Part shown: piece by piece, positions 2,625-63,528 of the stretch
Numbering within the stretch: position 1 is the first letter of the stretch
Layout: each line of letters opens with the position of its first letter
DNA from: a virus
Strand: one strand, 5' to 3'
Length of the DNA: 64,000 nucleotides
Virus record (IMG/VR): IMGVR_UViG_3300022682_000042
Location: 18,542 to 82,541 of that record
Notes under the pieces: generated by a model
What the model was told of the DNA's origin: nothing
Databases searched by the model: none
The model's input: only the letters and a program-made list of their open reading frames with translations
Program-made: the position numbers and the translations under genes

Positions 2625-2727
2625 ATATAACGCCCGCCAATAAGCCGCGCCAACGGGACTTGGTTTATAGTTGAGCCTTACAGCCAGAGGCACGTGTCTG
2701 GCGTCGGCTTTATTGGCTTTGTTAGGT
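2625..2727 (-). mobile_element. attC-type recombination site 4
   Basis: Minus strand ACCTAAC-AAAGC-CAATAAAGCCGACGCCA...TGGCGCGGCTTATTG-GCGGGC-GTTATAT. Imperfect inverted repeat with two extra bases on the R''-L'' arm. Confidence 0.8.
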
Positions 2728-2961
2728 TGCGTCTTGGCTATCTTGCATTGCCAGATACAGCCCTAGCACAACTTTGTCCATTACCATTTCAAGATCGGTT
2801 TGCGACCAGATTGCAAACCCTTTTTGCTTGTCAAAAATAGCCTGATTTATTTTGCGACGTTTTAATGGCTTACCTGTTCGCTTATTTAGACCGTAGTCAA
2901 AATCTTCCGTAAGGCACTTTAATATTTTTTTCTTTGCTAACCGTATATCTGATTTGTTCAT
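2722..2961 (-). CDS. Cassette 4 hypothetical protein
   Basis: 79 aa. ATG follows the core site GTTAGGTTGC; the stop lies inside the inverse core GCAACCTAAC. Confidence 0.75.
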   Translation of the reverse strand: MNKSDIRLAKKKILKCLTEDFDYGLNKRTGKPLKRRKINQAIFDKQKGFAIWSQTDLEMVMDKVVLGLYLAMQDSQDAT

Positions 2962-2965
2962 AGCA

Positions 2966-3051
2966 ACCTAACGCCCGCCAATGAGCGGCGGGCTACTGTG
3001 ATTGTTTGTGATGGCCAGAATCAACCGTCCGCTCCATTGGCATTGTTGGGC
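2966..3051 (-). mobile_element. attC-type recombination site 3
   Basis: Minus strand GCCCAAC-AATGC-CAATGGAGCGGACGG...CCGCCGCTCATTG-GCGGGC-GTTAGGT. Confidence 0.8.
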
Positions 3052-3199
3052 GGATGCATACCGGATAGCAATGCTTCTGGTATGATGCGCCCTGAGCGTT
3101 TGGTTGAAAAAAATACATTTTCTGGCCTGCCTCGATAACCGCACCGCATTTGTCACAGGTCGTTATGTAATCGTTGACAACTGGCTCAAAATTAAACAA
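2993..3199 (-). CDS. Cassette 3 small Cys/His-rich hypothetical protein
   Basis: 68 aa with a GAGGTGG RBS and TTG start. CDKC...HCYPVC. The frame reads into attC 3. Confidence 0.55.
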   Translation of the reverse strand: MFNFEPVVNDYITTCDKCGAVIEAGQKMYFFQPNAQGASYQKHCYPVCIRPTMPMERTVDSGHHKQSQ

Positions 3200-3219
3200 G
3201 TTCCACCTCTAAGCTATCC

Positions 3220-3345
3220 GCCTAACGATCTGAGTTGTGGCGATTGCGGGTTGGCTCCACAACTATGATTTACAGAATATTTGCAGCCCCAACCGACCAC
3301 AATTAAAAGCAAGATTAGCAATTCGCTACGAACGACTTGTTAGCT
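3220..3345 (-). mobile_element. attC-type recombination site 2
   Basis: Minus strand AGCTAAC-AAGTC-GTTCGTAGCGAATTGC...GCAATCGCCACAACT-CAGATC-GTTAGGC. Extra C and A on the R''-L'' arm give G and T on the bottom strand. Confidence 0.8.
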
Positions 3346-3573
3346 ACCGTGACGGCTGGCATAGACACGCAAACACCGCTTGCAGGCATTGGCTAACGGT
3401 ACATTTATGGTCATCCGGTAGCCATTAGAATATTTTCCGCTGGTATCAAAACCACGTCCGCAAATTGGCGCACTAATATGTCCGGCTTCAATTAAATTTT
3501 GGCGGCTTTTACCTTCGCCAGCCTCATAAACCAAATGTAACTTTTGACCACCTTTGATTTGCATATAACGCAT
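3340..3573 (-). CDS. Cassette 2 hypothetical protein
   Basis: 77 aa. GGAGG RBS follows the core GTTAGCTACC; the stop lies in the inverse core GGTAGCTAAC. CGR..CKRC. Confidence 0.75.
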   Translation of the reverse strand: MRYMQIKGGQKLHLVYEAGEGKSRQNLIEAGHISAPICGRGFDTSGKYSNGYRMTINVPLANACKRCLRVYASRHGS

Positions 3574-3593
3574 TTTGGCCTCCAAAAGAAGGT

Positions 3594-3718
3594 AGCTAAC
3601 TATTGAGTTGTGGCGATTGCGGGCCAGCACCGAACCGCAACATAATTGATAGATACGCTGGCAAGACTATTTCAAAAATCGCTGTGGTAGCAATTCGCCC
3701 ACCAACGATTTGTTATTA
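3594..3718 (-). mobile_element. attC-type recombination site 1
   Basis: Minus strand TAATAAC-AAATC-GTTGGTGGGCGAATTGC...GCAATCGCCACAACT-CAATA-GTTAGCT. The arms are nearly identical to those of attC 2. Confidence 0.75.
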
Positions 3719-4005
3719 CGGGGTTGGATTACAAAGCCGTATTTCTCTTGCCTCACCCGTTCTTTTTCAACCCAAAGGGCGCGGACATTAGCCACTTTCT
3801 GGTTATCAATTTCACCATCTGTAAATAATATCCCTTCGGGGTCATCGCGGTAATCCCACACCCCGCCAAGTTTAACTTCGCCTGTTTCTCTATCAAAAAC
3901 AACTTCAAGGGCCAACCCTAACGGATGAAAGAACTGCCGGTTCGCCTCTTGCAAAAAACCCTTCTCTTGAAATTCTTTTATGTTTATACGTTTGATTTCT
4001 GGCAT
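3667..4005 (-). CDS. Cassette 1 phage-type hypothetical protein
   Basis: 112 aa with a GGAGG RBS (MPEIKRINIKEFQEKGFLQEANRQFFHPLGLALEV). The frame reads into attC 1. Confidence 0.75.
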   Translation of the reverse strand: MPEIKRINIKEFQEKGFLQEANRQFFHPLGLALEVVFDRETGEVKLGGVWDYRDDPEGILFTDGEIDNQKVANVRALWVEKERVRQEKYGFVIQPRNNKSLVGELLPQRFLK

Positions 4006-4029
4006 CTTGCCTCCGATCTTAAAACAAGT

Positions 4030-4093
4030 ACATAACAATATTATAACATTACACCTTGCTTGATATTATACCCAACCTATGCTATAATGTCAA
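4030..4093. promoter_or_regulatory. attI-like core sites plus superimposed divergent sigma70 promoters
   Basis: Minus: TTGACA(4093-4088)-17-TATAAT(4070-4065), then GTTATAA and GTTATGT cores. Plus: TTGATA(4060-4065)-17-TATAAT(4083-4088), 7 nt before ATG 4096. Confidence 0.75.
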
Positions 4094-4095
4094 AT

Positions 4096-4758
4096 ATGAA
4101 ACCATCAAATGAATTACAACAAAAATTGGACAGTGCCTTTGCCGGCCTGTCCAAGAATACCGTCCGGCTTTACTCTCACTGGATTATTGAGTTGGCCAAA
4201 TTCCACGCGCCGCTCAAACTATCCGAGCTTGAACAATGGTATATTGACCAGTTTTTGGCCTGGATGGTCCGGCCCGGTGAATACTCCCGATCTACTACCA
4301 ATCAGGCCAAAAGGGCGATCCGTCTGTTTTATGAGTCGCTCGGCAGGCCGGTCAATGTACAAATGGTATCGACCCGGCACAAATCCCGACCAGTCGATAC
4401 CATCAGCCGGGAGCAGGTCAAGGAGGTTTTGTCCCGGTTGCCACTGCTGTACCAGATGCTGGCTGGCGACATTTACCACAACCTGACCCGACCCGGCGAG
4501 GTCGTCAAGCAGTCGAGGTCCAGGGGTGGATATACCGCCGTCTCTACCCTAACCAATCACATCAAACAAGCCGGTAAGGAGGCCGGGATTATCAAGCCGG
4601 TAACAGCGATAACACTATATCAGTCCGGCATTGTTCATCGGCTTGAGGATAACGGACCGGTGGCAGTAATGGAACTAACAGGGCTAAAACCAAGTACAAT
4701 TCAGAGGTACTTGAGACAGACTAAAAATAGTGATATAATAAATAAAAAGGGGTTTTAA
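4096..4758 (+). CDS. Shortened, catalytically degenerate integron-integrase-like tyrosine recombinase
   Basis: 220 aa. IntI-like N-terminal SAM domain (SKNTVRLYSHWI..FH..IDQFL..SRSTTNQAKRAIRLFY) and AGIIKPVT. HxxR is replaced by ITLYQS and LGH by TGL. The first Arg (RPGE) and the Tyr (QRY) are kept. Confidence 0.7.
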   Translation: MKPSNELQQKLDSAFAGLSKNTVRLYSHWIIELAKFHAPLKLSELEQWYIDQFLAWMVRPGEYSRSTTNQAKRAIRLFYESLGRPVNVQMVSTRHKSRPVDTISREQVKEVLSRLPLLYQMLAGDIYHNLTRPGEVVKQSRSRGGYTAVSTLTNHIKQAGKEAGIIKPVTAITLYQSGIVHRLEDNGPVAVMELTGLKPSTIQRYLRQTKNSDIINKKGF

Positions 4759-7023: not shown

Positions 7024-7452
7024 ATGTCAGCTTCAAATATTGCATCGGCCCTGGTCACTACTTTATCTAGTGCATCACGGTTTGGGCCAAAATGTGTTGG
7101 GCTTGATTTTGGGGTACTTGAGACAAGTTCGGCCTCTGGGATTGTAGTCTCCTGGGCCACAGTCGAGGCCATGCAGGGTCAGTTCGGGGACCGGCCCGAA
7201 AGTGACCGGGAATGGACTTTCCTGCTGGATACATTTAGTAAGGACACCGGTAACGTCAAATCGGTATTAGCCCGAACTTTGGCCTGTGTGGATGATGTGT
7301 TGGGGGCCATCGGGGATGACCCGACCTTGCAGGGAACGGTCGAAAGGGTATCGGCCATCCGAGGCCGGCGGAATGTTGACCTGGCTTATGAGGCCGGGGG
7401 CTTTACCTGGCTACGGATGCCGATAGAGGTAGATGTCGTTGAATGGCCTTAG
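7024..7452 (+). CDS. Putative tail terminator/tail completion protein
   Basis: 142 aa with a GGAG RBS. DPTLQGTV motif; lies before the tail tube gene. Confidence 0.55.
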   Translation: MSASNIASALVTTLSSASRFGPKCVGLDFGVLETSSASGIVVSWATVEAMQGQFGDRPESDREWTFLLDTFSKDTGNVKSVLARTLACVDDVLGAIGDDPTLQGTVERVSAIRGRRNVDLAYEAGGFTWLRMPIEVDVVEWP

Positions 7453-18373: not shown

Positions 18374-18747
18374 TGCAGGCTGTTATTGAAATCCCCGGCC
18401 AAGCAATGAGCCTTAAAAACTCAAAACAAATTATCAAGGCCGGAAAGTCCTGGCGACTTGTCCCATCAAAACCATACCGGCAATGGGCCGAGGCTGTTTT
18501 GTGGCAACTCAAGGTCAACGAGAATGTGAGCCGACAGTGGCGGTATCCTCTTCGGGTTAGCTTCCATTTTTACCGAAGAACCAGGCACCGGTTTGACTAT
18601 ATCAATTTAGCCCAGGGTCCTCTTGATTTGTTGGTAGAAGCTGGTATTATAGAGGATGATGATATGAGACACATCGTCCCCGGTGATTTCTCATGGTCAT
18701 TAGATAAGAATAACCCCCGCACTATTATCAAATTGGAGGAATTATGA
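18370..18747 (+). CDS. rusA: RusA-like Holliday junction resolvase
   Basis: SLKNS, RFDYINLAQGPLDLLVEAGIIEDDD and NPRT motifs. Confidence 0.75.
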   Translation: MMQAVIEIPGQAMSLKNSKQIIKAGKSWRLVPSKPYRQWAEAVLWQLKVNENVSRQWRYPLRVSFHFYRRTRHRFDYINLAQGPLDLLVEAGIIEDDDMRHIVPGDFSWSLDKNNPRTIIKLEEL

Positions 18748-24820: not shown

Positions 24821-24979
24821 ACGGGCTATGTGGTGGCTAAAATACTCTGTACTAAATTGAATATTGATATGGGACAGGTGATGGCCGACAATATCGAGAA
24901 ATTGCTTGTCAGGTATCCTAATGGCTACTCTTCAGATGATAGTCAAAACAGAATTGACGTTAAAAAGGAGAAAGTGTAA
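24821..24979 (+). pseudogene. C-terminal remnant of a MazG-like nucleotide pyrophosphohydrolase
   Basis: Unlisted frame YVVAKILCTKLNIDMGQVMADNIEKLLVRYPNGYS, preceded by an in-frame TGA; catalytic EExE part absent. Confidence 0.5.
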
Positions 24980-25707
24980 TGGGGAAAAACAGTTCTATCG
25001 AGTGGACCGATTCAACTGTAAATTTTTGGCAAGGCTGCCAGAAGGTTAGCCCCGGCTGCAAAAACTGTTATATGTACCGGGACAAGAAACGGTATGGCCA
25101 AGACCCGGCCACAGTAGTCAGGTCTAGCCCGGCCACATTCAATAAACCGAAGAAGTGGAAAGACCCGGCCCTGGTCTTTACCTGTTCCTGGTCGGACTTT
25201 TTCATCGAACAGGCTGACCCCTGGCGGGATGAAGCCTGGGACATTATCAGGCAGACTCCTCATTTGACTTACCAGATTTTGACAAAGCGGCCCGAACTGG
25301 TCAAGGACCGGTTGCCCGATGATTGGGGCGAGGGGTGGCCCAATGTCTGGCTTGGGGTTAGTATTGAGACTGAGGATTATTACTGGCGGATTATGGCTAT
25401 CGAGGATATTCCGGCAATGGTTAAATTTGTCAGCGCTGAACCCCTGTTAGGGCCATTATCCAACCTGTACAGTTATTTCCCGGTTATTGATTGGGTAATT
25501 ACCGGGGGGGAAAGCGGGCCAAAGTACAGGCCGGCCAACCTGGATTGGTTCCGGGAAATTCGGGATGATTGCCAGAAGTGGGGAGTTCCGTTCTTCCATA
25601 AGCAACATGGAGGGAACCGGAAGGTCGATGGAGTCTGGGGAGGCCGGATGTTGGACGGGCGGGCCTGGGATGAGATGCCGGAAGTTAGAAGTCTTAAAAA
25701 TACTTGA
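24979..25707 (+). CDS. Phage Gp37/Gp68 (DUF5131) family protein
   Basis: SSIEWTDST.N..GCQKVSPGCKNCY, QILTKRP, FVSAEPLLG and WVITGGESG motifs. Confidence 0.9.
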   Translation: MGKNSSIEWTDSTVNFWQGCQKVSPGCKNCYMYRDKKRYGQDPATVVRSSPATFNKPKKWKDPALVFTCSWSDFFIEQADPWRDEAWDIIRQTPHLTYQILTKRPELVKDRLPDDWGEGWPNVWLGVSIETEDYYWRIMAIEDIPAMVKFVSAEPLLGPLSNLYSYFPVIDWVITGGESGPKYRPANLDWFREIRDDCQKWGVPFFHKQHGGNRKVDGVWGGRMLDGRAWDEMPEVRSLKNT

Positions 25708-51014: not shown

Positions 51015-51703
51015 CCGATGAAGTTGTAACCGTTTTACCTGAGACCAATGGCCTGGAATACAATGACCCTCCTCGGCTGGTCTGGGTTCCGGTCAGGGAG
51101 GCAGTTGGATTATTGTGGGCCGGGAATCCTAAACTCCACTCGATTGGAGATTTAGTTCAGTCCATTGAACGATATGGCCTGCAAGAATTACCTAAATTTG
51201 ACGCCAACCTGGAAAACAGGGGTGGGGGCCGGGGAGCGATTGTAGCTGGCAATGGCCGGGTCGAGGCTTTAGCCTGGATGGAACAGGATGGCCGGGATTT
51301 ACCCAGGGGAATAGCCAAAGGACCGGATGGGGCCTGGGCCTTGCCGGTCCTGGCCGGGGTAGATCAACCTTCGGAGGAGATGGCGGCGGCCTACGCGGTG
51401 GACTCCAATAACCTGACTTTGGCCGGGGGTGGTTTTGATGCTTTCGACATGGCCCGACTGTGGGATGAAGAGGCTTATGTGGCCCTGGTAGAGTCGTTGG
51501 GGGATATGAGGCCGGTCACGGTAGACGGGGAGGCTTTGGATGCCTTGATAGGAATGAATGGAAATCAAAACAAAAAAACAGAACCGATAGATATACTACC
51601 AGAATACGCTATTTTGATTGAGTGTGACAGTGAACAGGCACAGGTTGTTGCATTGGAAGAATTAGTGGGGTTGGGCTATCAATGCCGAGCTTTAATATCA
51701 TAA
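51011..51703 (+). CDS. ParB/sulfiredoxin-like protein
   Basis: NPKLH..SIERYG..IVAGNGRVEAL..AYAVDSNNL. Confidence 0.7.
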   Translation: MTDEVVTVLPETNGLEYNDPPRLVWVPVREAVGLLWAGNPKLHSIGDLVQSIERYGLQELPKFDANLENRGGGRGAIVAGNGRVEALAWMEQDGRDLPRGIAKGPDGAWALPVLAGVDQPSEEMAAAYAVDSNNLTLAGGGFDAFDMARLWDEEAYVALVESLGDMRPVTVDGEALDALIGMNGNQNKKTEPIDILPEYAILIECDSEQAQVVALEELVGLGYQCRALIS

Positions 51704-52836
51704 GACAAGTTGACATAGAGCGGACGCCGCGAGTAATGCAACTGGAAGGCATCTTTGACGTTGCGCCGTCACAACGAAGTGAAGAGCGATGGCAAGGCGA
51801 GATTGACTTGCCAGACGATTGGAATATTGGCGTTATCGTTGGTCCGTCTGGCTCCGGCAAAACGACATTGGCACATGAGCTATTCCCTGATTTCATTGTC
51901 AATTGCTACGATTGGCCGGATAGCAAGAGTATTGTTGACGCCTTCCCAGATGGCTTGAGTATCAAAGATATTACCGGCTATCTGTCATCTGTCGGGTTTT
52001 CTTCCCCGCCGTCGTGGTTGCGTCCGTTTCGGGTATTGTCGAATGGTGAGCAATTCCGGGCGACGCTGGCCAGGGCTTTGGCCGATGAGCGAGAGTTGAT
52101 TGTCATAGATGAATTTACCAGTGTCGTTGATAGGACTGTGGCTCAGATTGGTAGTGCGGCATTATCCAAAGCAATCAGGCGTAAGGGCAAAAAGTTTATT
52201 GCCGTTTCTGTGCATTATGACATTCTGGATTGGCTTGAGCCGGATTGGGTGTATCAGCCTCACACAGGCGAATATTACACCGGGAGGTATCTTCACCGGA
52301 GACCGGAGATTAAGCTCAAAGTTAAACGGGTTCATCACTCCGCTTGGCGAATATTCCGGCAGTATCATTATTTAGACACCGGCCTGAATACGGCAGCGGT
52401 TTGCTTTTGCGCTTTTTACGATGGGAGGCCGGTGGCGTTTACGGCAGCGTTGCACTTCCCGCACCCAAAGGCAAAGAATATCAAACGGGAACATCGGACG
52501 GTTTGCTTGCCGGACTTTCAAGGTGTGGGAATTGGGAACGCTCTGAGTGATTATGTTGGAGCGATGTTTAAGACGGTTGGGTATCGGTGGCAGTCTCAAA
52601 CGAGCAATCCAGCAATGATACACGCTAGAAATAGGTCGAAAAATTGGGCGATGATTGCGAGGCCAAATAGAAAATCTAAAACTATGCCTAAGCAATCATT
52701 TTCTGGAAAAAGAAAGGGTACGTCTGGCCCAGGGGCCGGACGTACCGGAGGATTAACAAAACGATTGCGAGCCACATTTGAATATGTTGGTTCGGCACTT
52801 GATAAACAAGAGGCAATAAAAATTATGAGTGATTAA
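51682..52836 (+). CDS. ABC-type ATPase fused to a GNAT acetyltransferase
   Basis: GPSGSGKT, LSNGEQFR and IDEFTSVVDR; then YHYL, RTVCLPDFQGVGIG. Confidence 0.85.
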   Translation: MPSFNIIRQVDIERTPRVMQLEGIFDVAPSQRSEERWQGEIDLPDDWNIGVIVGPSGSGKTTLAHELFPDFIVNCYDWPDSKSIVDAFPDGLSIKDITGYLSSVGFSSPPSWLRPFRVLSNGEQFRATLARALADERELIVIDEFTSVVDRTVAQIGSAALSKAIRRKGKKFIAVSVHYDILDWLEPDWVYQPHTGEYYTGRYLHRRPEIKLKVKRVHHSAWRIFRQYHYLDTGLNTAAVCFCAFYDGRPVAFTAALHFPHPKAKNIKREHRTVCLPDFQGVGIGNALSDYVGAMFKTVGYRWQSQTSNPAMIHARNRSKNWAMIARPNRKSKTMPKQSFSGKRKGTSGPGAGRTGGLTKRLRATFEYVGSALDKQEAIKIMSD

Positions 52837-60879: not shown

Positions 60880-63528
60880 ATGCCCAATGAAGCCTTATTT
60901 CTAACAGAGATAGCGGACCGGTTTGAGCGGGGGGCCAAACCTCCGTTGCCATTGCACGACCCACCGGCCCTCCTCCGGGCTTTGGGCCTGACCCCCTGGT
61001 CAGATGTCGAAGATTTCAGGGGTGAGGATAAAGTCTCAACCATTGCCAACCTGGTCTTGTCCCCCACTCCCCCCAACCGGTTCACGGTAGTTGAGTCCGG
61101 TAACGGGGTAGGTAAGTCGGTCACAGCGGCGGCCATTGCTTCAGCCTGGATGGCTCAGGGAGACCCGGCGGCCATTGTCACCATAGCGCCCTGTTATGAT
61201 GACCAAACCGAAGTTTTAACAAATGTAGGTTGGAAAAAGTTTATTGATCTTGATGATCAAGACCAGGTAGCTTGCCTGGATAAGTCAGGCCGAGTCCATT
61301 ATGAGGTTCCTCAAGAAAGATTTGTATTTCAATATCAGGGTGAGATGATTGGATACCAGAACCAACTGGTTGATTTCTTGGTTACTCCCAATCATCGGGT
61401 TTTTATGGACACGTTTATTAACCGTAAACCAGAAGATTTCAAGGGTAAGGTTATTCCGGCCAGTGAAGCCTTTGACCGAAATGGTCGGTTCCGAAAAATA
61501 GCTGATTGGGATGAAGGGGAAGAGTCAATATCCCCTGATTGGGCAGAGTTTTTAGGGTTTTGGTTTGCCGAAGGGTGGGCTGAGTTTAATCCAAAAGCCA
61601 GAAAATACCGAATAACTCTGACTAACTCAGATGACAAATATGTAGAGTGCCTTTTAAGGCGAGTTGGGTTATGGGATATAACGAAAGTTTATCCTAAACA
61701 CAAAAAGCCACACGTTAAAGATTATACAATTCATCGCAAAGAATTGGCTGCTATATTTGTCAAGTATGGTAAGGCTCATACTAAACGAATACCTGATTCA
61801 ATCAGAAATGGGTCAAAGAAAATTATTAGAGCTTTTCTCAAAGGGTTCTGGGTAGGTGATGGAACAACAGATAATAATGGTAGTACCAGTTTGGCTACAG
61901 CCGGTTATGGTTTAGCCGGAGACTTGCAGGAGCTATATCTCAGGGTAGGAGTTATCGCTTCTGTTCTGACGTGTATCAGTCAAGTCGGCAATGAGTATTA
62001 CACAGTTAATGTTTGGAAAAGTCGGGGTAAATTTCCTCATGTTCACAAGCGGGAATATCAGAAAAAACATTTTCGGTCTGATGACTATAACGGTTGGTAT
62101 AAAAAATACTATGATGGACCAGTTTATTCGGTACAGGTATCAGATTATAACAAAGGGGATGGTAAGGGGGGAATAATTCTGGTCCGGCGTAATGGCAAGT
62201 ATGTTTGGAGTGGAAATACCCACAGTCAGGTCAATAATGTTCTATGGCGATATATCCGGTCGATGAAAAATGAGGTATCGGCCATTCCCGGCACAGTTTT
62301 TGAGACCCCCCGGTGGGACTGTTCCCCCACCCATTACGGCGTGGGCCTCTCTCCCAAACGGGCCAGTGCCGAGGACCTGCAAGCCCTTTACGGTTACCAT
62401 AATCCCCGTCTCCTGGTTATCCTTGATGAGGCCCCCGGCCTGCCCCGGTTACTCTGGGAAGCCGTTCAACGGCTGGTCACCGCCCCCGGCAACCGTATAT
62501 TGGCCCTGGGTAATCCACTCCAACAGGCCGGGCCTTTCTGGGAAGCCTGTAACCGGCCTGACTTGTGGAACTACGTTCACATCAGTTGTCTTGACCATCC
62601 CAACGTAGCCCTAAAAAGAGAGGCCATTCCCGGCGCTACCGGAGTCGAATGGGTCCGGGAACGAATAAAGGACCACTGCACCAGGGCCGCCCCCGATGAC
62701 CCCAACTCCTTCGAGTTCGAGGGCCAACACTACCAACCCGATGCCGTTTTTCAAAGTATGGTCCTGGGCAAAGCCCCGACCGAGGCCACCGACCAGCTTA
62801 TCAGTCTGGCCTGGGTCGATGGGGCAATGAGTTGGACAGCTGACCCTGACCCATCTGAACCGGTGGTATTATCCCTTGACCCGTCCAGGGTAGCCCACGG
62901 AGACCCGGCGGCCCTTATTTGCCGGCAAGGGGGCCTGGTCCGGTGGGTTCGCCGCCGCCGCCCCTCCACCCCAAACCCGACCGATGAACTGGCCGGCTGG
63001 CTCTACTCAGAACATCACTCCTCCGGCTCTTCCCGGGTGTTTATTGAGGAGACCGGTATCGGGGCCGGCGTGGTCGATAGGGCCAGGTCCCTCGGCCTCC
63101 CCGTTATTCCCGTCTCCCCTTCCTCCGGGGCCTCTAAACGCAATCTGGCCAACAAACGAGCCGAATGTTGGTGGAACCTCAGAAATGCCCTACAAACCGG
63201 CTCTATCTCCCTTCCCCAGGATGACTTGCTAATGGCCGACCTTATCACCCCCAAATATTATTTCGACGGTCAGGCCAGAGTTATCATTGAGCCTAAAAAC
63301 AAAATAAGGGACCGGTTGGGCCGGTCCCCCGATTCTGGCGATGCTCTGGCTATCTCCTTCGCTCTCCCTACCCGTATTCCTCCCCCTGACCAATCAAACG
63401 TTGGCCTGGCTGCCCCTTCCCGCTGGGCCTCAGTCGCCAGCCCCACCCAGGAAACAGGTCAGAAAATGTCAGGGCCTTCTCGGTGGCACGCCGGGGGAGT
63501 TCGGAATAAGGGCCGATTCAGGAGATAA
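60880..63528 (+). CDS. terL: Terminase large subunit containing an intein
   Basis: Walker A SGNGVGKS, Walker B VILDEA, ALGNP, nuclease SLDPS, and GRSPDSGDAL. Confidence 0.9.
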   Translation: MPNEALFLTEIADRFERGAKPPLPLHDPPALLRALGLTPWSDVEDFRGEDKVSTIANLVLSPTPPNRFTVVESGNGVGKSVTAAAIASAWMAQGDPAAIVTIAPCYDDQTEVLTNVGWKKFIDLDDQDQVACLDKSGRVHYEVPQERFVFQYQGEMIGYQNQLVDFLVTPNHRVFMDTFINRKPEDFKGKVIPASEAFDRNGRFRKIADWDEGEESISPDWAEFLGFWFAEGWAEFNPKARKYRITLTNSDDKYVECLLRRVGLWDITKVYPKHKKPHVKDYTIHRKELAAIFVKYGKAHTKRIPDSIRNGSKKIIRAFLKGFWVGDGTTDNNGSTSLATAGYGLAGDLQELYLRVGVIASVLTCISQVGNEYYTVNVWKSRGKFPHVHKREYQKKHFRSDDYNGWYKKYYDGPVYSVQVSDYNKGDGKGGIILVRRNGKYVWSGNTHSQVNNVLWRYIRSMKNEVSAIPGTVFETPRWDCSPTHYGVGLSPKRASAEDLQALYGYHNPRLLVILDEAPGLPRLLWEAVQRLVTAPGNRILALGNPLQQAGPFWEACNRPDLWNYVHISCLDHPNVALKREAIPGATGVEWVRERIKDHCTRAAPDDPNSFEFEGQHYQPDAVFQSMVLGKAPTEATDQLISLAWVDGAMSWTADPDPSEPVVLSLDPSRVAHGDPAALICRQGGLVRWVRRRRPSTPNPTDELAGWLYSEHHSSGSSRVFIEETGIGAGVVDRARSLGLPVIPVSPSSGASKRNLANKRAECWWNLRNALQTGSISLPQDDLLMADLITPKYYFDGQARVIIEPKNKIRDRLGRSPDSGDALAISFALPTRIPPPDQSNVGLAAPSRWASVASPTQETGQKMSGPSRWHAGGVRNKGRFRR
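61192..62217 (+). mobile_element. Intein with a LAGLIDADG homing endonuclease (342 aa)
   Basis: Starts CYDDQTEVLT; block B VTPNH; LGFWFAEG and LKGFWVGDG; ends WSGN|T. Exteins rejoin as TIAP-THSQ. Confidence 0.9.

Follow-up and report, generated by a model that had tools for sequence, protein, structure and literature searches.

We report that a virus genome carries, at the head of an array of gene cassettes, an intact gene for a shortened relative of the integron integrase IntI from which the catalytic core has been deleted. The gene lies in a stretch of 64,000 nucleotides (hereafter the window), positions 18,542 to 82,541 of the IMG/VR virus record IMGVR_UViG_3300022682_000042. The window is the final 64 kb of this 82.5-kb record, which was rated complete by CheckV, and tail, portal and terminase genes are present in it. 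As judged by sequence comparison, the 220-amino-acid product, P0001, is a descendant of IntI that has lost the catalytic residues and is held under purifying selection, and the surrounding DNA has the architecture of an integron platform with the recombination signature of cassettes. With regard to function, we put at about one half the probability that P0001 is a non-catalytic IntI descendant which probably binds its own attI and promoter region, with strand exchange carried out by the IntI of the host; the DNA binding, the regulation and the use of the host enzyme are what we infer from these features.

An IntI-derived gene without the catalytic core

4096..4758, plus strand: short IntI-derived gene (protein P0001), ATG to stop codon, 220 amino acids; assigned by Pfam, NCBIfam and PDB alignment

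The original prediction for this DNA began the feature at 4030, which also takes in the control region upstream of the ATG at 4096. It described a 220-residue frame with an IntI-type N-terminal domain, and this was borne out by the profile and structure searches. Pfam detected PF13495, the N-terminal SAM-like core-binding domain, at residues 14-82 (E 3.6e-14) and PF02899 with 26.2 bits, and gave no match of P0001 to PF00589 at E <= 1. The NCBIfam ranking was headed by the integron-integrase model TIGR02249 (51 bits), followed by archaeal XerA (44), XerD (21) and XerC (13). The TIGR02249 match covered profile positions 12-127 of 315 and stayed below the cut-off of that model (265 bits). The best match among solved structures was IntI4 of Vibrio cholerae (2a3v), aligned in two pieces (residues 19-120 to 19-123 and 150-192 to 245-287). 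In this alignment VTCHTLRHSFATHLLE stood opposite VTAITLYQSGIVHRLE, and ITLYQ of P0001 faced HTLRH of IntI4, in agreement with the predicted change of the HxxR motif to ITLYQS.

P0001 was thus laid out as a core-binding domain followed by one helix and by the final helices of the catalytic domain, with the core of the latter deleted. A profile of 20 members of the short family to which P0001 belongs matched IntI4 with 65 bits, ahead of XerA (56), at residues 17-130 and 238-302. The C-terminal 64 profile positions aligned to IntI4 238-302, the last of which we take to be the catalytic tyrosine, and therefore about 107 residues of IntI4 (131-237) corresponded to 16 profile positions. The central catalytic region was accordingly as shortened as had been proposed. 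Alignment with five full-length integron integrases placed the deleted stretch from just past box I (LLYGSGLR), through the beta-hairpin with the catalytic lysine, to the IntI-specific insert; the box-I arginine was lost, TGL stood in place of LGH as had been noted earlier, and the tyrosine was kept. Read from these alignments, about 100 residues were lost in one ancient internal deletion, among them the box-I arginine, the lysine of the beta-hairpin and the insert specific to IntI. The short family also lacked the C-terminal tail, which in full-length IntIs of Chloroflexota ends in SPLD.

Tyrosine recombinases need the residues R-K-H-R-H/W-Y. Among the 20 aligned members, the first arginine column held arginine in two, the second arginine column in six, and the two histidine columns (H-II and H/W-III) held none of the expected residues. 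The nucleophile column was tyrosine in 18 members and phenylalanine in the other two. The tyrosine column was hence the sole one of the set to be kept, the segment bearing the lysine and the IntI-specific extra segment both lying within the deleted stretch. These counts, together with the alignment to full-length integrases, substantiated the claim that the catalytic set had been lost, and P0001 is not expected to be a conventional recombinase because the residues lost are those that tyrosine recombinases require. Membership in the superfamily was nevertheless evident from PF13495, found in all 20 members; PF00589 was detected weakly in two (best E 6e-4). A stored structural model of the homologue P0010 superposed on full-length recombinases over 211-218 residues with template-modelling (TM) scores of 0.72-0.77.

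A rare family of short proteins under purifying selection

A word-indexed search found four other proteins of 207-222 amino acids with 37-76% identity to P0001, and an exhaustive search found 83 proteins at E <= 0.001. The top 15 representative clusters of the latter (E <= 1e-10) were all 183-236 amino acids long; the first full-length integrases (273 and 325 amino acids) did not appear before about E 1e-8, and each of these aligned in two segments. The internal gap was common to all 20 aligned members, and the frame was intact in all 21 short proteins, which had one deletion in common. In a tree with 30 full-length recombinases, these 21 proteins fell on one side of a branch of length 1.55 with a Shimodaira-Hasegawa-like approximate likelihood ratio (SH-aLRT) support of 100. 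The full-length set of this tree consisted of 13 lower-ranked full-length matches and six hand-chosen IntI matches of the exhaustive search together with 11 Chloroflexota IntIs; about 40 other matches of that search were left out. Since the tree gave no resolved position for the short clade relative to the full-length recombinases, we do not claim that it descends from the IntIs of Chloroflexota in particular.

The ratio of nonsynonymous to synonymous substitution rates (dN/dS) between the window copy and its counterpart in a second phage (L002, described below) was 0.12-0.16 by three methods; by part it was 0.13 for the N-terminal part and 0.06 for the C-terminal part, where dS was saturated. 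Neutral decay of the gene, which would have undermined the original prediction, was ruled out by these ratios and by the single clade formed by the short proteins. A relationship to Xer proteins rather than to IntI was likewise considered and rejected. The best NCBIfam and PDB matches were IntI, the family profile favoured IntI4, and full-length relatives passed TIGR02249: six of the top ten full-length matches of the exhaustive search exceeded the cut-off, the other four scoring just below it (177-261 bits), and all ten Chloroflexota frames examined, namely nine of the ten best frames and the IntI of a Caldilineaceae contig, scored 445-502 bits. In this Chloroflexota test, a frame on the strand opposite to its match (L040, 247 amino acids) was excluded, as it was from the tree; another (L036), with the same score as L035, was included in the test but not in the tree. 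The nearest full-length relatives are therefore integron integrases, as predicted.

The family is rare. Ten clusters checked held one or two sequences each, mostly from contigs of about 1-5 kb. No tblastn match to P0001 was found among 50,697 phage records, no relative was confirmed in metagenome scans with the queries A3 and P0010, and none was confirmed in a genome scan with A3. Among 301 genomes of the class that holds the Caldilineaceae genome, 85 matched the family profile at E <= 1e-8. Every one of these matches covered profile positions 2-128 alone, all but a few in frames of about 270-430 amino acids, and by this pattern they are the N-terminal domains of full-length proteins. No short-family member was found by the profile search in the 301 genomes, and the family was seen only in phage and metagenome sequences. 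Three Chloroflexota genomes (G005, G006 and G007) had frames of 90-125 amino acids matching just the first 65-87 positions of TIGR02249, two of them with an internal stop codon; these are stand-alone or broken N-terminal domains distinct from the short family.

Overlapping promoters, an attI-like site and a cassette array

The DNA between the short gene and the first cassette carried the following sites, with a third promoter-like site inside the 3' end of the gene.

4060..4088, plus strand: promoter-like site for the short gene, TTGATA-17-TATAAT with extended TG, 11/12 consensus positions; kept in L002 and L008
4065..4093, minus strand: promoter into the cassette array resembling the integron cassette promoter Pc, TTGACA-17-TATAAT, 12/12; also 12/12 in L002 and L008
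4030..4050, minus strand: attI-like region with two GTTAT repeats 11 nucleotides apart, ATATTG|TTA at 4041-4033, R box GTTATGT at 4036-4030
4711..4739, plus strand: third promoter-like site, TTGAGA-17-TATAAT with TG, 11/12, in the 3' end of the short gene

The two promoters at 4060-4093 overlapped hexamer on hexamer, the -10 element of each lying on the -35 element of the other within an 11-nucleotide inverted repeat. The superposition of a leaderless promoter on the cassette promoter, claimed from the letters alone, was thus recovered by a promoter scan, at 11/12 and 12/12. In all, nine promoter-like sites were counted in the region, the mean in shuffled sequences being 5.9. Both promoters recurred in the two other phages that carry the platform (12/12 with 11/12, and 12/12 with 10/12). 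The plus-strand -10 element ended seven nucleotides before the ATG at 4096, with no Shine-Dalgarno sequence between. Because of this spacing, a leaderless mRNA is the natural reading for the short gene. The third site lay upstream of a glycosyltransferase-like gene at 4758, and TTGACA-17-TACAAT occupied the equivalent position in L002.

On the minus strand, the 12/12 promoter was followed by four co-oriented small open reading frames (ORFs), each followed by an imperfect palindrome, of 125, 126, 86 and 103 nucleotides in order. The palindromes had an inverse core (nnnnAAC) at one end and a core (GTTnnnn) at the other, and two of the stop codons lay inside the inverse core. The cassettes were delimited as follows.

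3600..4035, minus strand: cassette 1, ORF 4005-3667 (phrog_3954, function unknown) and attC1 3718-3594, 125 nucleotides, type A
3226..3599, minus strand: cassette 2, ORF 3576-3340 and attC2 3345-3220, 126 nucleotides, type A; stop codon inside R'' (AGCTAAC)
2972..3225, minus strand: cassette 3, ORF 3199-2993 and attC3 3051-2966, 86 nucleotides, overlapping the 3' end of the ORF
2631..2971, minus strand: cassette 4, end of the array, ORF 2961-2722 and attC4 2727-2625, 103 nucleotides; stop codon inside R'' (ACCTAAC)

The R'' boxes of cassettes 1-4 matched their left boundaries at 5/7, 7/7, 6/7 and 7/7 positions. In attC sites, the double-prime arm is the one that carries the extrahelical bases. 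The bottom strands of attC3 and attC4 folded as end-to-end hairpins (z-scores of -2.78 and -3.42; for attC4, 0/200 shuffles were as good). When the entire phage was scanned for constrained hairpins, attC3 and attC4 were found, attC1 and attC2 were not, and three likely false sites came up; an unconstrained minimum-free-energy scan was too noisy for attC detection. The attC2 sequence showed 80% identity to an attC of L002 and 81% to one in a metagenome-assembled genome (MAG) of Caldilineaceae. The cassette ORFs encoded 68-112 amino acids, and for the three searched against Pfam, PHROGs or both (those of cassettes 1, 2 and 4) the sole match was phrog_3954 in cassette 1. Past the last core, the bases GTTATATGGCT at 2621-2631 were identical to the opening of L002 cassette 9 (about 7066-7076), beyond which the sequences diverged; the array of the window may end in a truncated cassette.

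The same platform in three phages

The platform was found in two further phage genomes, both with terminal repeats and rated complete. The short gene of L002 (70.3 kb) was 75% identical to that of the window and faced about ten cassettes; that of L008 (83.4 kb) was 34% identical and faced four cassettes, all with 7/7 boundary matches. In all three contexts the gene was divergent from an attI with the same ATATTGTTA site, a cassette promoter and an attC array, so that position and promoters were conserved at 34-75% protein identity. On the cassette strand, the three platforms shared four blocks in the order TTTCAT, TTGACATTATAGCA, TATAAT and ATATTGTTA, and similarity ended just past GTTA. This end of the homology places the attI crossover at window 4036/4035 (G|TT, inside ATATTGTTA). 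An alternative core, GTTATAA at 4047-4041, was rejected in favour of GTTATGT at 4036-4030 given the conserved G|TT at 4036/4035 in the three-phage alignment. IntI1 is known to bind four sites in attI1.

The hallmark of integron cassettes is that the G|TT crossover leaves the cassette's own core at its left boundary. Over 18 cassettes of the three phages, the inverse core of a cassette matched its own left boundary at 7/7 positions in 12, at 6/7 in three and at 5/7 in three. No cassette had a 7/7 match of its inverse core to the right-hand core R'. When inverse cores were shuffled within arrays, the mean was 3.9 perfect matches and the maximum 10, and 0/20,000 shuffles reached 12. The attC boxes and the G|TT crossover of integrons were thus both in evidence, and the promoter that the original prediction called a cassette promoter is indeed directed into a true array of cassettes, by the R''/boundary signature of its ORF/attC units. 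What the elements lacked was a functional integrase of their own. Neither PF00589 nor the serine-recombinase domain PF00239 was found in six-frame searches of the three complete phages, searches that recovered PF00589 in 14/14 and PF00239 in 12/14 known genomes used as positive controls.

Two of the arrays had a cassette in common. This 423-nucleotide cassette with a 124-amino-acid ORF beginning MWYKKYPKLNS was present as the second cassette of L002 (9230-9652) and the fourth of L008 (5004-5426), with 86% identity over 423/423 nucleotides. The window phage and L002 were otherwise distant, with structural proteins 23-33% identical and just three genes at 75-81% amino-acid identity, and the DNA block common to both at this place (4033-4716) corresponded to the platform without its neighbours. 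Besides the short gene, two genes of unknown function, 24979-25707 (phrog_2045) and 51682-52836 (phrog_11143), showed 76-81% amino-acid identity with phage G001, the shared DNA reaching 92% identity at 51946-52655; they look like exchanged modules. A DNA pattern of the platform gave matches in IMG/VR in the two known phages alone. In the third phage, a further type-A attC match (L013, G002 63971-70582) lay about 50 kb from the platform and may represent a second attC site or cluster.

Type-A attC sites beside full-length integrases of bacteria

The type-A attC pattern was found at 11 bacterial loci, nine of them from Chloroflexota MAGs.

Chloroflexota MAGs with type-A attC: Caldilineaceae, Anaerolineales, Promineifilaceae, Chloroflexia and Anaerolineae
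Other loci with type-A attC: one Calditrichota MAG and one MAG labelled Pseudomonadales

Phage and bacterial type-A attCs were 70-81% identical over about 115 nucleotides. On the Caldilineaceae contig, a type-A attC closed a cassette with a 7/7 left-boundary match, and a full-length IntI (459 bits) lay divergent to it. TIGR02249 exceeded its cut-off in three of five genomes with type-A attC and in none of 14 controls. None of the ORFs of the phage cassettes recurred at the 11 bacterial loci. In L022 (1-3340), from a Caldilineaceae MAG, the cassette adjacent to the bacterial IntI had the unusual length of about 3.2 kb and contained long open frames, its attI side being partly masked by N. The type-A motif was also present in two incomplete phage records, G003 and G004, neither of which had a short-family gene or PF00589.

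The prediction that cassette movement relies on a host integrase in trans received indirect support, from the lack of a recombinase catalytic domain in the three phages and from the occurrence of the same attC type beside full-length IntI of Chloroflexota. According to extracts of Qi et al. 2023 (PMC9892861), attCs of virulent phages were recombined by bacterial IntI1 supplied in trans, which makes use of a host IntI a reasonable inference here.

Proposed function and alternatives

P0001 keeps the core-binding domain, which is the DNA-binding part of the enzyme, together with the closing helices of the catalytic domain, and it is the conserved head of a phage-borne integron platform. This platform comprises a putative leaderless promoter serving the short gene, the cassette promoter that overlaps it on the opposite strand, an attI-like site and cassettes. 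We propose that the short protein would act as a site-specific binder of its own attI/promoter region. Since overlapping promoters admit one polymerase at a time, the bound protein could weigh cassette expression against its own synthesis, setting the balance of two mutually exclusive promoters. Alternatively or additionally, it may control the access of an integrase to attI, the cutting and joining of cassettes presumably being done in trans by a full-length IntI of a Chloroflexota host. A precedent is TnsF, a tyrosine-recombinase domain that has been inactivated and serves to select DNA targets (Faure et al. 2023, in the portion of PMC10293859 consulted). Any such regulation would be local, as motif searches gave no further sites in the window.

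Several observations weigh against this proposal. The window contained no repeated operator beyond the att site and promoter; ATATTGTTA had two matches, a count reached by 9/100 shuffles, and the -10/-35 block had one. Constraints on the promoters and on attI are enough by themselves to account for the DNA conserved between the phages. Cassette 1 matched the attI boundary at only 5/7 positions, and the bottom strands of the type-A sites attC1 (z -0.85) and attC2 (z -0.35) folded no better than shuffles, a result that counts against strong hairpins although the boxes are present and the type recurs in bacterial integrons. The assignment of a Chloroflexota host, a provisional one, came solely from attC similarity, and the genomic contexts that could be read were three (the window, L002 and L008), the other 16 of 19 family members being on short contigs. 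Moreover, attC clusters occurred without the short gene in G003 and G004, and other phages with attC clusters and no such gene are described in the parts of Qi et al. 2023 (PMC9892861) available; hence the gene is not required for the carriage of cassettes.

Alternatively, the short protein might mark the phage attI and recruit host IntI loaded with host cassettes, an adaptor or target selector of what would be a helper-dependent integron. We regard this as a tentative idea, in line with TnsF as an inactivated recombinase that selects targets (PMC10293859, in extract). The homology of the three platforms stops exactly at the attI G|TT, as expected if cassettes enter there, and the phages share attC types with host arrays. 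However, a protein lacking both the tail and the IntI insert seems ill suited to an ordinary position in the tetramer, the 11 bacterial loci yielded none of the phage cassette ORFs, and the boundary of the first cassette was imperfect in two of the three phages (5/7, 6/7 and 7/7). It is conceivable, if somewhat doubtful, that in this way virulent phages, during infection, harvest and reshuffle cassettes of host chromosomal integrons without a recombinase of their own. Interference was judged unlikely in turn: as a dominant-negative factor, the short protein would replace a subunit on att sites or pair with host IntI and so break the synaptic tetramer. The preserved last helices and the superposition of the P0010 model on full-length recombinases are compatible with such pairing, as is the lack of the SPLD tail, for the IntI synapse is stabilised by the tail together with its pocket, and recombination falls when their interaction is blocked (bioRxiv 10.64898/2026.03.10.710562, in the portion available). 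That the effect would be to shield the phage genome or its array from excision by host IntI, or from integration into the host, seems no likelier. Arrays differed between the phages and shared a shuffled cassette, so that recombination was not blocked over evolutionary time, and a phage could escape the risk by simply carrying no attC sites.

A further view, that the gene is a decaying intI remnant or has a role unrelated to the integron, such as that of a general phage regulator, appeared improbable. Truncated intI beside arrays is common in bacteria, deleted intIA and truncated intI1 being mentioned in the text of Qi et al. 2023 that was accessible (PMC9892861), and residues 191-208 gave a weak match to a MerR-type helix-turn-helix (E 0.0084, below the cut-off). 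On the other side stand the low dN/dS, the intact frames with a common deletion in one clade of 21 members, the conservation of position and promoters in 3/3 contexts, and the absence of significant extra copies of the candidate motifs elsewhere in the window. Residual recombinase activity, with the retained tyrosine working in an active site of unconventional make-up or drawing on residues from a partner, was thought very improbable. The tyrosine persisted in 18/20 members and the arrays were dynamic, yet no other recombinase was found in the three phages. Four of the five non-tyrosine catalytic positions were not conserved, however, the segment with the fifth, the lysine, was deleted, and two members had phenylalanine for the tyrosine. 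To our knowledge, all known tyrosine recombinases require both arginines, which further counts against catalysis. Binding of the attI/promoter region by a non-catalytic IntI descendant remained the reading we favour.

Relation to known systems

The closest known protein is IntI itself (TIGR02249; VchIntIA/IntI4, 2a3v), to which the N-terminal domain and last helices of the short protein had their best match, and whose gene is likewise oriented divergently from attI, from the cassette promoter and from the array of attC cassettes. The short protein differs in its length (220 against 325-373 amino acids), in the loss of about 100 core residues, the IntI insert and the SPLD tail, and in its TIGR02249 score (51 bits against a cut-off of 265 and 445-502 for Chloroflexota IntIs). 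Phage integrons and clusters of attC sites lacking integron-integrases (CALINs) resemble the platform in that phages, including virulent ones, carry attC arrays; they differ in having full-length intI in temperate phages or integrase-less arrays (Qi et al. 2023, Front Microbiol, PMC9892861, as far as extracted). No mention of a conserved short IntI gene with its own attI and promoters heading an array was found in the consulted parts of that article, which lists 17 CALIN phages in supplementary tables. Truncated intI pseudogenes next to bacterial arrays are likewise inactive integrase-derived frames beside cassettes (PMC9892861, in part), but they are sporadic and recent, whereas the short family is diverged, has one common deletion and is under purifying selection. 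In TnsF of Tn6022-like transposons, as described in part of Faure et al. 2023 (Mol Cell, PMC10293859), an inactivated tyrosine-recombinase scaffold binds DNA and another enzyme does the chemistry; compared by description, it belongs to an XerH-like lineage with zinc fingers, and its partner is the Tn7 machinery. The ALOG domain regulators are eukaryotic, consist of the N-terminal domain alone and have no link to att sites (Iyer and Aravind 2012, PMC3537659, in extract). Phage integrons, integrase-less attC clusters and truncated intI remnants (PMC9892861), as well as inactivated recombinases acting as selectors (PMC10293859), are therefore already in print in the parts of those sources consulted. 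In the literature searched, no description was found of a conserved IntI family that lacks the core and stands at the head of cassette arrays in phages.

Integrons are defined by their integrase, and arrays without one are usually seen as debris or as passive passengers of a host enzyme. If our proposal holds, the platform would represent a third state, in which the half of the enzyme that recognises the site is retained and the chemistry is left to an enzyme from outside. Such a platform would offer a natural tool for studying the roles of the IntI N-terminal domain and last helices on attI, a natural candidate for an inhibitor or an adaptor in integron recombination, and a direct route of cassette exchange between phages and bacterial chromosomal integrons in Chloroflexota-rich habitats. 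Such platforms would also fall in a blind spot of integrase-based integron finders, which would call them integrase-less. Because the short gene fails integrase models, the array of the window would probably be filed as a CALIN under the definitions of IntegronFinder and HattCI (>= 2 attC, no intI nearby).

Other observations in the window

The terminase large subunit of the window lay in an 882-amino-acid frame (60880-63528) in which the terminase match was confined to residues 506-858. The N-terminal half of this frame gave PHROG matches of thymidylate-synthase-like (residues 103-256) and endonuclease-like (218-334) type, and the frame could be a fusion or contain an inserted element.

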